Shown: piece after piece, positions 53,030 to 55,945 of the stretch
Numbering within the stretch: the stretch's first letter is position 1
How the letters are laid out: every line of letters begins with the position of its first letter
Assembly: GCA_964595465.1 (NCBI GenBank)
Contig: CAZQQI010000002.1
Location: 66,078-130,077, forward strand
Reading direction: 5' to 3'
From: an uncultured Planctomycetales bacterium
GTDB lineage: Bacteria; Omnitrophota; Gorgyraeia; Zapsychrales; JANLHA01
Length of the DNA: 64,000 nt
Position numbers and translations under genes: made by a program
The notes under the pieces: model-generated
Told to the model about the DNA's origin: nothing
Database searches by the model: none
What the model saw: only the letters and a program-made list of their open reading frames with translations

Positions 53030-55945
53030 ATGAGACGAGTGCGTCTTTTTACTGCCATCATACGCTGTTTGCTTCTGGCTATCCTGGTTGGTTATGCTTT
53101 GCCGGGCCCGGCCTCTGCTCAATACACCCGAACCTATGATTTTTTTCTGGAAAAAGGTAAGGCCGCTCTCGAAGCTGAAGATTATCAATCCGCGCTGATC
53201 TATTTTGAAGCTGCCTACGCCGCTGATCCTGCAAATAAATATTTGCCTCAATATATTAATCTGATCAAACGCAGGATGGATGACCGGGTCAAAGATGTTT
53301 CTTCCGAGCGCGAGCCAACAGCCCGCCGCTCTGATCAAACAAAGGTTTCGGACCAGTCATCCGTTCCATCATCCGATCGATCCTTTGCGCAAGAGCAAAT
53401 TCAGGCGGAGTCCACGCCGACTCCATCCCCCAAACCCCCGTCTGTGACCCCGTATTCTCCGGAAGGGAACCGTCCTCCTGCGGCCGGGCCGTATGAGACA
53501 GCTGCTGAGCAGACAGCCCCGGAAGCCACCGCACCGGCTGATAAACAGAAGAAATATCAAACATCTTCCATTCTGCTGGATGACGAAGCATGGGATCTTC
53601 AACCTAATACCCCGTTAGAAATCCCCACGGATGCAGAATTAATTTTTCGTTCTCCCGATCATATCAAGCGCGTCCTGGTCATCGAACCCGATGTGTTGGA
53701 AGCGGACCGCATCGACGCTCAGACCTACCGTTTTTTACCGGCACGGATGGGAAAGTCTTTCCTTCATATCTGGGATAATGACCGGCGCTGGACCTTTCTG
53801 ATAACCGTTGTTCCCAGCCGCCCGGCATTAGCTGCTGTCCGCCGACATGCAGATACGCGCTGGGGCACCGTACAACCTTTTCATTTTCTCCATAACGCGT
53901 CTTATGATTATTACGCGCGGGGATCCAGCCTGGATAGTTTAGAACGCAACAGTTATGCTCATCGGGAATGGTTTATGCTGAAAGGCGGAACGCCTTACGG
54001 TTTTTTTGATGCGAAAATTAATCTATATGAGACTCAAACCGCTTCGATGGAGCCGGTTACCTATTCCATGGGATTGACAGATGCCCGTCTGGGTTCTTTG
54101 CGGAATTTTGATATCCGTATTTTTGATTCTTCCCATCAGATCTCACCTCTGACTCTGCCTGGCCGAACCTTTCGCGGTTTTTTTCTTAACGGGTATTTCG
54201 ATGAAGAACGCTTTGAATATACCTATTTGCGCGGAAGAAACCGCAGTATCTACGGCTCCCTTTCTCCGGGCCTGGAAAATCTTTCCGACTTTTATATTGA
54301 AGCGGGCGCCTTTTCCTTCCGTCCTGATGAAGAAGACCGCTATACCGTAAATTTTGCGCGGTCCTGGGGTGAGGATAAACCCGGGAATGCTGCGGAACGG
54401 GCTTACAGTGTGGTGACGGAAAAAAAGCTTACCGATCACTGGCACGTTTACTCCGAAACAGGCTATGATGAAAATGCTGCCGGGCTTCATTTACGGGCGC
54501 AATATGCCGATGATGAACGCATAGCTTCGGTCCAATTCCGCCAGATCCCGCGGAATTATAACACAGTGACGGGGACTCCGGCTGACCAGGGCGAGGTGGG
54601 AACCCGTCTGACCTACAATTATAATCAGGGAAGCACGGTCTGGCGGTCCTATTTAGATCTTTATCGGGACCGGGAAAACAAAAACCCTGATAATCCGGAC
54701 GCCATGAATGTTGATTTCAGCTTAAGCGGGATCATGCCTTTAAATCCGGATTTAGACTGGCGGAACAGTGTCTATTTTGTCCATACTCCCGGATTATGGG
54801 CGGAACAAACCGATTACCGTGTGACGTCAGGCCTTTATAAAACTCTGCAGGTTTTTGACCGCCGGATACGTGTTTTTGGCAGCGGCGGGTTTCAGCAGAA
54901 CCGATATGATTCCAATCCTGCTTCGGATTACGATAGAACGACTCTGAACACAGGAATGCGTTTACCTCTTACAGCAAATACCAATCTCAGCTTGAATTAT
55001 GACATGTATTATATAAAAGATCGCGCTGATAATGAAACCCTGACTCCCGCGTCCTTAACCGCCTCGCTGACGACCTATCGCCGTTTTAGTGAGCGCTGGA
55101 CCTTTAACGGAAGCCTGTATTACCGCGATGAAGAGGATACAGAAGGCGATAAAAGCTTCTTAGCCGGTCAAGACAGTTTGACAACGAACGCCAGCTTGAC
55201 GTACCGGCCGGTTCGGGGGGTGGAATTGTTTTGTGACGCACGCGCGCGTGAAGTCTGGGCTGAGAGTGCTGACCAGGAAGCCTACACAGAAGCTGATGTC
55301 CGGGTCGGTATGCGTTCCGACTGGGAATTGCCCTTCGCCTGGAACCCCCGCGGTATTGTCACGGGACGGGTCTATAAGGATATTTCAGCTGACGGAAAAT
55401 ATGACGAAAAGCAGGACCAGGGGATACCCGGCGTCAAGGTTCAGGTGGGACGGGATGAGACCGTTACCGATGACGAAGGCTGGTACAGTACGCAGACAAG
55501 GGCCGATTGGGTGAATGTCTCGCTGGATTTTAAAACCCTGCCGGAAGGGTTTGTTGTCAACAGTGAACCCGTGCAGAAAGTTCTGATCTCTCATGGCCAG
55601 GTCTTTACCGCGGATTTTGCCATTGTCAGTCAATCCGGGATACATGGTGTTGTTTTTGTTGATGACAACCGTAACGGCATACCTGACCGCGGGGAGAAGA
55701 CTGTGCCGGATGTCCGTTTGATCCTCGACGGAGATATCTCAGTGAGAACGGATCAAAAGGGCGGATATTTTTTCAAGAATATTGCGGAAGGGACGCATAC
55801 TGTCAAATTGGATATACAGACGGTCCCGCTTCAGTATTTGCCGACTGTTAAATTGGAACAAACTGTTGAGATCACGGAAGGGACGACCTATCTTCTGCAT
55901 TTTCCTCTCAAAGAAAACCCCTCATCTGATGAGAACGGCGGCTGA
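53030..55945 (+). CDS. Large outer-membrane protein with four parts: signal peptide + TPR, a CpaC/secretin-N-like 'pilus formation N-terminal' domain, a beta-barrel region, and two Cna-B/carboxypeptidase-regulatory-like C-terminal domains
   Basis: 'IKRVLVIEPDVLEADRIDAQTYRFLPARMGKSFLHIWDNDRRWTFLITVV' resembles the CpaC/RcpA N-domain. Central Y/N/G-rich alternating segments. 'GIVTGRVYKDISADGKYDEKQDQGIPGVKVQV' and 'GIHGVVFVDDNRNGIPDRGEKTVPDVRLIL' Cna-B-like repeats. Confidence 0.5.
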   Translation: MRRVRLFTAIIRCLLLAILVGYALPGPASAQYTRTYDFFLEKGKAALEAEDYQSALIYFEAAYAADPANKYLPQYINLIKRRMDDRVKDVSSEREPTARRSDQTKVSDQSSVPSSDRSFAQEQIQAESTPTPSPKPPSVTPYSPEGNRPPAAGPYETAAEQTAPEATAPADKQKKYQTSSILLDDEAWDLQPNTPLEIPTDAELIFRSPDHIKRVLVIEPDVLEADRIDAQTYRFLPARMGKSFLHIWDNDRRWTFLITVVPSRPALAAVRRHADTRWGTVQPFHFLHNASYDYYARGSSLDSLERNSYAHREWFMLKGGTPYGFFDAKINLYETQTASMEPVTYSMGLTDARLGSLRNFDIRIFDSSHQISPLTLPGRTFRGFFLNGYFDEERFEYTYLRGRNRSIYGSLSPGLENLSDFYIEAGAFSFRPDEEDRYTVNFARSWGEDKPGNAAERAYSVVTEKKLTDHWHVYSETGYDENAAGLHLRAQYADDERIASVQFRQIPRNYNTVTGTPADQGEVGTRLTYNYNQGSTVWRSYLDLYRDRENKNPDNPDAMNVDFSLSGIMPLNPDLDWRNSVYFVHTPGLWAEQTDYRVTSGLYKTLQVFDRRIRVFGSGGFQQNRYDSNPASDYDRTTLNTGMRLPLTANTNLSLNYDMYYIKDRADNETLTPASLTASLTTYRRFSERWTFNGSLYYRDEEDTEGDKSFLAGQDSLTTNASLTYRPVRGVELFCDARAREVWAESADQEAYTEADVRVGMRSDWELPFAWNPRGIVTGRVYKDISADGKYDEKQDQGIPGVKVQVGRDETVTDDEGWYSTQTRADWVNVSLDFKTLPEGFVVNSEPVQKVLISHGQVFTADFAIVSQSGIHGVVFVDDNRNGIPDRGEKTVPDVRLILDGDISVRTDQKGGYFFKNIAEGTHTVKLDIQTVPLQYLPTVKLEQTVEITEGTTYLLHFPLKENPSSDENGG

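Follow-up and report, generated by a model that had tools for sequence, protein, structure and literature searches.

Chaperone-usher pili are textbook ATP-independent fibre assembly machines and, to our knowledge, are known almost entirely from Proteobacteria. The barrels of their ushers FimD and PapC (Pfam families PF00577, PapC_N and PapC_C) have 24 strands, with a plug between strands 6 and 7, a periplasmic N-terminal domain ahead of the barrel and two β-sandwiches behind it. The alternative pathway of the E. coli common pilus (ECP) type employs the pilin EcpA, the chaperones EcpB and EcpE, the usher EcpC and the adhesin EcpD. Here we compare with these systems a conserved gene cassette from an uncultured bacterium of the Omnitrophota (assembly GCA_964595465.1, contig CAZQQI010000002.1, forward-strand positions 66,078 to 130,077). 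We refer to this stretch of 64,000 nucleotides (nt) as the window, and coordinates without a locus label are counted within it. The last same-strand gene of the cassette encodes a protein of 971 amino acids (aa). We consider it, with a probability of roughly 60%, to be the translocon in the outer membrane for a surface fibre that is built or exported by a non-canonical system of the chaperone-usher type; fibre assembly by the cassette is something we infer from its genes and from structure predictions.

Domain structure of the 971-aa protein

The open reading frame (ORF) at 53030..55945 on the plus strand, with an ATG start and 971 codons for amino acids, was confirmed exactly in the sequence. 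An earlier, sequence-only reading of the window had assigned its product to the outer membrane and divided it into a tetratricopeptide repeat (TPR)-like N-terminus, a Pro/Ser/Thr-rich linker, a domain like the N-terminal domain of CpaC secretins, a central β-barrel and two Cna-B-like repeats. Pfam, an AlphaFold2 (AF2) model and a scan of the protein family support the outer-membrane assignment, and every one of these parts could be located:

53030..55945, plus strand: usher-like outer-membrane protein, 971 aa (ORF, Pfam, AF2, Foldseek)
53114..53278, plus strand: TPR-like helical module, residues 29-83, one TPR motif and a capping helix, predicted periplasmic (Pfam, AF2)
53294..53545, plus strand: disordered Pro/Ser/Ala/Thr-rich linker, residues 89-172 (composition; predicted local distance difference test, pLDDT, <50)
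53558..53812, plus strand: PF13629-type eight-strand β domain, residues 177-261 (Pfam, AF2)
53882..55327, plus strand: predicted β-barrel, residues 285-766, 26 DSSP strands (AF2, Foldseek)
55349..55630, plus strand: first SdrD_B/CarboxypepD_reg-like β-sandwich, residues 774-867, in the position of usher C-terminal domain 1 (CTD1) (Pfam, AF2, sub-threshold alignment)
55637..55915, plus strand: second SdrD_B-like β-sandwich, residues 870-962, in the position of usher CTD2 (Pfam, AF2)

Residues 1-30 read as a Sec-like signal peptide ending in 'PASA/QY'. The helices of the TPR-like module follow directly in the AF2 model. For the single sequence, Pfam matched a TPR weakly at residues 35-69 (E 0.01); the family profile matched consensus TPR proteins strongly, and TPR_2 was found in 34 of 51 relatives in a Pfam scan of the family, for which 25 of the 56 families matched were listed. 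The linker consists of 17% Pro, 16% Ser, 13% Ala and 10% Thr, and varies in length and sequence among family members.

The β domain at residues 177-261 comprises eight strands modelled with a pLDDT of ~93. In the single sequence, the PF13629 model (T2SS-T3SS_pil_N) covers residues 195-255 with an E-value of 1.1e-3 and 19.1 bits, below its gathering score of 23; across the family it is found in 43 of the 51 relatives, with a best E-value of 1e-9. At the family level the domain therefore belongs with the N-terminal domains of CpaC and RcpA, from which the 971-aa protein otherwise differs in its genomic context, in its predicted monomeric barrel and in having no secretin domain. It also contains the best-conserved motif of the whole protein, 'GxTFLHxWDxxGRWTF'.

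At the C-terminus, PF17210 (SdrD_B) matched two stretches above the gathering score (E 4.2e-13, 49.9 bits against a cutoff of 29.7), giving two significant copies of a domain of the SdrD_B, Cna-B and carboxypeptidase-regulatory-like kind. All 51 family members scanned contain SdrD_B, and the family profile matched SdrD in the PDB at E 3e-12; CarboxypepD_reg also matched the C-terminus, below its gathering score. The barrel region between these modules is rich in R, L, S, D, T, Y, A, G and N. A direct sequence search of the PDB with the single sequence gave no match, and an NCBIfam scan of the protein gave nothing useful.

Barrel topology and fold comparison

A first AF2 run from a 4-sequence alignment reached a pLDDT of 60 and was replaced by one from 108 sequences, with a pLDDT of 87.4 and a predicted template-modelling score (pTM) of 0.71. 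From the N- to the C-terminus, the model runs through the TPR helices, the linker and the β domain to a helix at residues 264-275, followed by the barrel and the two sandwiches. The barrel region, with a pLDDT of ~97, contains 26 strands as counted from the DSSP secondary-structure string of the predicted model. Odd-numbered strands are preceded in the model by turns of 2-4 residues and even-numbered ones by loops of 4-16 residues, as is usual for such barrels, in which the short turns face the periplasm and the longer loops the outside. This parity, together with the even number of strands, places both the N- and the C-terminal domains in the periplasm. Surface adhesins also carry SdrD_B domains; here, coming after an even-stranded barrel, the two copies are predicted to be periplasmic and not stalk domains. 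As the longest segment between strands has 16 residues (406-421), the barrel contains no inserted plug domain. The protein is predicted with high confidence to form a large monomeric barrel.

When the model was compared with the PDB by Foldseek, FimD and PapC structures occupied all of ranks 1 to 11, with E-values from 6.4e-21 (FimD) to 4.5e-12 and up to 833 aligned columns. Structures of the pore by itself were also matched (PapC at E 4.5e-12, FimD at E 5.9e-10). Other barrels, namely MOMP, OprC, FadL, OprD, AlgE and TonB-dependent receptors, followed at ~1e-9 and weaker, and no LptD was found among the 50 matches listed. As a predicted fold, the protein resembles ushers more than any other solved structure. 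The sequence-only reading had likened this architecture to no characterised secretin, usher or TonB-dependent receptor; for ushers that statement fails in both fold and layout.

The N-domain motif aside, the stretch conserved best, in the barrel, is the acidic segment 'YRDEEDTEGDKSFLAGQDSL' at residues 698-716 (nt 55121-55177). It covers the end of strand 23, an 11-residue loop that is external by parity, and the start of strand 24. This segment could bind a cation, or it could form part of the lumen wall or narrow the lumen.

Relationship to ushers

With FimD and PapC the 971-aa protein shares, besides their place as its best structural matches, the order of an N-terminal periplasmic domain, a large barrel and two C-terminal β-sandwiches, although the families of the flanking domains differ from PapC_N and PapC_C. 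It differs from them in the number of its strands and the lack of a plug between strands 6 and 7, in a PF13629-type N domain in place of PapC_N, and in the additional TPR motif on a disordered linker of ~85 residues. None of PF00577 (Usher), PapC_N and PapC_C matched the protein, even at E <=10, and no usher model is among the 25 families listed for the 51 relatives.

Alignment of profiles by hhalign gave the same picture. Neither the whole protein nor its N domain, barrel, CTD1 or CTD2 aligned significantly with FimD, EcpC, six classical or four alternative ushers, the best values being E 7e-4 for the whole protein and E 3e-3 for CTD1. Against FimD alone the family scored 0.3%, and against six E. 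coli ushers 25.9% (E 7e-4), which is sub-threshold. The sub-threshold alignments are nevertheless long and co-linear, spanning 321 columns at E 7e-4 and 540 at E 9e-4. In them, the barrel's second half and the first of the C-terminal domains line up with their FimD counterparts, including 'TDxxGY...V.LD..TL'.

A missing match to PF00577 is not peculiar to this family. EcpC, an accepted usher of the alternative class, has none either; it is matched by CooC_C, by a TcfC plug domain and by a CarboxypepD_reg-like C-terminal domain, and this last domain falls into the same broad class as the C-terminal domains of the 971-aa protein. CooC_C gave a weak match in 2 of the 51 family members, and neither TcfC nor any plug-type family matched the 971-aa protein or is among those listed for its relatives. 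Because usher sequence models, 24 strands and a plug insert are all wanting, we describe the protein as usher-like in fold and layout, and possibly a very remote homologue, but not as a member of the usher family.

The domains and the outer-membrane location proposed in the sequence-only reading were therefore borne out, while its view of the architecture as unlike any characterised usher was not. The composite description itself stands because the whole protein fits no single known family with confidence. The architecture is that of an unusual usher variant, with 26 strands, no plug insert, a secretin-type N domain and a TPR, and not an unclassifiable chimera. That reading also did not extend to the neighbours of the gene, which include an EcpB-like chaperone homologue and candidate subunits.

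A chaperone homologue adjoins the barrel gene

Immediately upstream of the barrel gene lies the following gene:

52151..52972, plus strand: periplasmic EcpB/EcpE-type chaperone homologue, 273 aa (PDB profile search, hhalign)

The profile of the 273-aa family found as its best PDB match the E. coli common-pilus chaperone EcpB (5dfk), at E ~1e-3. In direct hhalign comparisons, the score rose from 89.6% against EcpB alone to 94.5% against EcpB plus EcpE and to 97.3% (E 2e-11, 174 columns, both domains) against nine EcpB/EcpE-type chaperones from E. coli and plasmid-borne operons. Control comparisons with seven other β-sandwich alignments gave P >=0.003; for scale, the EcpB/E family against classical chaperones gave 1.2e-6. 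This sequence evidence makes the 273-aa protein a homologue of the EcpB/EcpE pilus chaperones of the alternative pathway. Automatic naming at JGI has already labelled two members of the family 'P pilus assembly chaperone PapD'.

Residues with a described function in EcpB and CsuC include the superfamily residue Pro60, the carboxylate anchor Tyr169 and the hydrophobic donor positions of strand G1, and the most characteristic feature of non-classical chaperones is an invariant Arg89 in strand F1 of CsuC and EcpB (PMC4654587). In the 273-aa family, the equivalent of Pro60 is P98, which is Pro in 40 of 49 members, and that of Tyr169 is Y216, Tyr in 48 of 49. The G1 donor columns 146, 148 and 152 are hydrophobic in 49/49 and column 150 is mostly so, with an invariant R151 between them. 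Further basic residues are conserved as well, R209 being invariant, as is R151, and K34 present in 48 of the 49; the Arg89 column is taken up below.

Candidate subunits and other secreted proteins

The remaining three genes of the cassette encode secreted proteins:

49993..51399, plus strand: secreted 468-aa protein, first gene of the cassette (ORF, hhalign, synteny)
51443..52084, plus strand: secreted 213-aa protein, candidate major fibre subunit (alignments, synteny)
55960..56268, minus strand: small convergent secreted protein (synteny, Sec-type signal peptide)

The 213-aa family has a conserved alternating-hydrophobic strand directly after the signal peptide ('F-x-V-S-A-T-I-P-x-A-x-G') and ends in the motif 'PGxYxGTLTISAT'; its gene occurs in one or two tandem copies per locus. 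In sequence, the two ends recall the N-terminal extension and the last strand of pilins, and the C-terminus of EcpA, 'EGIWSGDVSVQF'. The resemblance of the C-terminal 'GIWSGDVSV' / 'GIYSGSLTV' in the pilin comparison is at motif level only, and the best PDB match of the family was FimF at E 0.37. It is from genomic context and motifs alone that we infer a pilin role for this protein.

The actual start of the 468-aa protein is probably the Met at 50032 ('MVKKTLILL...'). It is built of three tandem homologous domains of ~135-150 aa each, which recognise one another in internal hhalign comparisons (99.0, 99.2 and 96.6%) and each end in a 'G.Y.G.h.Y' strand motif. The whole protein matched nothing in Pfam, the PDB or EcpD, nor did its single domains in Pfam or the PDB. 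We regard it as a candidate tip, adhesin or second fibre component.

For the small convergent gene, the likely product is an 80-aa protein starting from the Met at 56202 ('MKKLSVL...'). A signal peptide is followed by a mature N-terminal strand, 'xKhxVTIPxxhG', a variable linker and a conserved C-terminus, 'VRNNxPIILKTxVxK'. The mature N-terminus resembles that of the ~200-aa subunits, and the protein gave weak matches to the subunit profile; a Pfam scan of it returned no match. The 80-aa protein might cap, terminate or regulate the fibre.

Conservation of the cassette

The cassette thus runs from the 468-aa protein through one or two ~200-aa subunits, the 273-aa protein and the 971-aa protein to the small convergent gene. 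All five products start with Sec-type signal peptides, and the three same-strand genes upstream of the 971-aa gene, encoding the secreted proteins of 468, 213 and 273 aa, have no Pfam match above threshold. At three homologues found by an identity look-up, the order is kept (~460 aa, one or two of ~200 aa, ~270 aa, barrel protein), and two of these loci (L002 and L004) have entirely different flanks. With a 4-sequence alignment of the 971-aa family we recovered 17 related loci from a collection of species-representative genomes, and all of them show the cassette order wherever the upstream DNA suffices. Their records are labelled Omnitrophota or Omnitrophica, or Planctomycetia for some third-party metagenome-assembled genomes. 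Orthologues of the 468-aa protein hold the same position in 16 other loci. In 14 loci the 80-aa gene lies directly downstream of the barrel gene on the opposite strand, as at L001:11001-11246, L004:11008-11250, L007:8946-9227, L008:8076-8399 and others. The chaperone homologue adjoins the barrel gene and is always linked to it; the subunit candidates, whose pilin role is putative, are linked as well. The five cassette genes travel together.

A word-indexed homologue search with the 971-aa protein returned 4 relatives only, and it was an exhaustive profile search that revealed the family. More than 100 full-length relatives of 870-1150 aa were found among the best 150 representatives at 50% identity, almost entirely from Omnitrophota. 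A promoter and terminator scan across the cassette yielded nothing beyond chance.

A model for fibre assembly

In the fibre-building system that we favour, the 273-aa chaperone would act in the periplasm, lending its hydrophobic G1-like strand (residues 146-152) to cap the 213-aa subunit and probably also the 468-aa protein with its three domains. The chaperone-subunit complexes would then dock on the periplasmic domains of the barrel protein, most likely first on the PF13629-type N domain, where conservation within the protein is highest. Holding the base of the fibre would fall to the two SdrD_B-like domains, as it does to CTD1 and CTD2 in ushers, and subunits would join by exchange of the conserved N-terminal strand and exit through the barrel. 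With no plug inserted in the barrel, the pore must be closed in another way. The most plausible gate is the N-terminal β domain with helix 264-275, positioned beneath the lumen or inside it. Through its long flexible linker, the TPR motif may anchor the whole assembly to the cell wall or to a partner. Attachment to surfaces or to host cells would be the most plausible use of such a fibre in Omnitrophota.

Weighing the alternatives

Several results weigh against such a system. No significant sequence similarity was found between the 971-aa barrel protein and classical or alternative ushers, and, as a scale, an alignment of one of these usher classes with the other reaches E 7e-11. In the barrel, 26 strands take the place of 24 and a plug insert is missing. 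The Foldseek template-modelling (TM) scores are low, at 0.30-0.40 overall and 0.48 on the pore. In the chaperone family, none of the 49 sequences has Arg in the Arg89 column (residue 127 of the 273-aa protein), which is occupied by A, G or S and in one sequence by C. Finally, searches with the 213-aa family against Pfam, the PDB, EcpA/MatB and fifteen E. coli pilins, including type-1, returned nothing significant. Much of this would suit a cassette that exports or inserts non-polymerising cargo, with the 468-aa and 213-aa proteins as individual surface proteins or a coat and no fibre formed by donor-strand exchange: for its subunits no homology to pilins is detectable, its largest cargo consists of three covalently joined domains, the barrel lacks a plug and is unlike ushers, and the Arg89 carboxylate anchor of non-classical chaperones is absent. 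We nonetheless think this unlikely, since the subunit family keeps its alternating-hydrophobic N-terminal strand and C-terminal 'GxYxGTLTISAT' as fibre subunits do, the subunit genes are duplicated in some loci, and every known homologue of the chaperone serves polymerising pili (PMC4654587).

It is distinctly improbable that the protein is a stand-alone outer-membrane porin or adhesin with decorative extra domains, its likeness to ushers reflecting a big barrel plus immunoglobulin-like domains and its neighbours being unrelated. The low TM-scores, the sub-significant sequence similarity to ushers and the frequency of SdrD_B domains in adhesins would agree with this; yet the five genes stay linked across loci with differing flanks, the neighbour is a significant chaperone homologue, loop parity and the even number of strands assign the SdrD_B domains a periplasmic location, and pore-only usher structures, stripped of N- and C-terminal domains, still outrank other barrels. 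A transporter of the TonB-dependent or LptD type, in which the N-terminal domain plugs the large barrel for uptake or lipid export, is very hard to reconcile with the data. The β domain does directly precede the barrel, as in TonB-dependent receptors, these receptors are among the Foldseek matches (~E 1e-8), and the barrel of LptD also has 26 strands. Against this, the E-values of the usher matches are lower by as much as about twelve orders of magnitude, LptD is missing from the 50 listed Foldseek matches, and C-terminal tandem β-sandwiches and an adjacent pilus chaperone are foreign to such transporters. The TonB-dependent identity fails on its defining domains, as neither Plug (PF07715) nor TonB_dep_Rec matched the 971-aa protein or is among the families listed for its relatives. 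Least credible of all is a part in a Tad or type IV pilus system as a relative of secretins, a reading that PF13629 in 43/51 members and weak profile matches to RcpA and a secretin in their N-terminal regions might suggest, Tad and type IVa pili being commonly encoded in Omnitrophota (PMC10066038). The model is a monomeric 26-strand barrel and not the multimeric secretin fold, and the cassette contains no ATPase, platform or prepilin genes of Tad or type IV pili. With the defining C-terminal secretin domain unmatched, both in the 971-aa protein and among the families listed for its relatives, a secretin identity is effectively refuted.

Relation to the ECP pathway and significance

Among described systems, the ECP-type alternative pathway offers further parallels. 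The periplasmic chaperones are homologous by profile comparison, and component sizes correspond, with subunits of ~200 aa, chaperones of ~220-270 aa, outer-membrane proteins of ~840-970 aa and a large fibre or adhesin protein of ~470-550 aa. EcpC, like the 971-aa protein, escapes the general Usher Pfam model and ends in a CarboxypepD_reg-like domain. The differences are as numerous: the barrel protein is not significantly similar in sequence to EcpC and lacks a plug domain of the TcfC type, CooC_C is confined to its weak matches in two of the 51 members, the cassette subunits do not match MatB/EcpA, and the Omnitrophota chaperone is without the Arg89 hallmark. Moreover, the gene order differs, the cassette has an extra small convergent gene, and the host phylum is Omnitrophota, not Proteobacteria.

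A full-text search of the literature for chaperone-usher systems in Omnitrophica found no paper, and the main genomic surveys of the Omnitrophota make no mention of ushers or fimbriae. Literature on novel usher systems returned known archaic and alternative pili and archaeal filaments only. At NCBI, the 971-aa protein is named 'SdrD B-like domain-containing protein' and its 273-aa neighbour 'hypothetical protein'. The cassette is best read as a previously undescribed set of genes for a chaperone-usher-like surface fibre in uncultured, ultra-small Omnitrophota. A bolder combination, which we hold somewhat less likely than not, is that of a deeply diverged Omnitrophota branch of the chaperone-usher superfamily. 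Its plug-less 26-strand translocon would be gated and served by the PF13629 N domain; its pilins would have new folds, including a covalent three-domain subunit and a mini-protein with little beyond a donor-like strand; and its fibre would be a main attachment organelle of ultra-small, probably host-dependent bacteria.

If the cassette does build a chaperone-usher-type fibre, its presence across the Omnitrophota would extend the range of the pathway, and would amount to a natural experiment on the essentials of an usher: gating, and handover between N- and C-terminal domains. It would also add three or four uncharacterised protein families without any Pfam match. The short list of features discussed for the host-dependent lifestyle of Omnitrophota comprises type IVa pili, Tad pili and giant ORFs (PMC10066038), to which a candidate adhesion organelle would be added.

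Neighbouring genes and other observations

In one lineage the cassette is followed by a second large outer-membrane-type protein of 911 aa (L002:11716-14451 and L003:4338-7073, both plus strand). This protein shares the TPR-like module and linker with the usher-like family (profile E 1.6e-12); the C-terminal domains are not shared. TPR module and linker together may serve Omnitrophota outer-membrane proteins as a periplasmic tether that can be reused.

Upstream of the cassette, a plus-strand block at 44400-49900 encodes a sensor kinase that includes a receiver domain, a separate response regulator, two secreted proteins, one of 252 aa and a coiled-coil one of 504 aa, and a DegP/HtrA-like protease bearing PDZ domains. 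The block is syntenic in the closest relative (L001:1-4788), absent from L002 and L004, and probably lies outside the core cassette. A periplasmic protease adjoining a fibre system could be relevant. Further upstream, at 39903-41933 on the plus strand and ahead of a response-regulator gene, is a 676-aa protein with a hydrophobic N-terminal two-thirds and at least four strong C-terminal TPR repeats.

Elsewhere in the window, the interval 26001-30000 shows a strong negative AT skew (-0.28, -0.22) over a 1146-aa ORF at 26068-29508, probably because hydrophobic codons are T-rich. The sole Pfam match of this ORF is to the C-terminal end of YfhO, a family of large membrane proteins.

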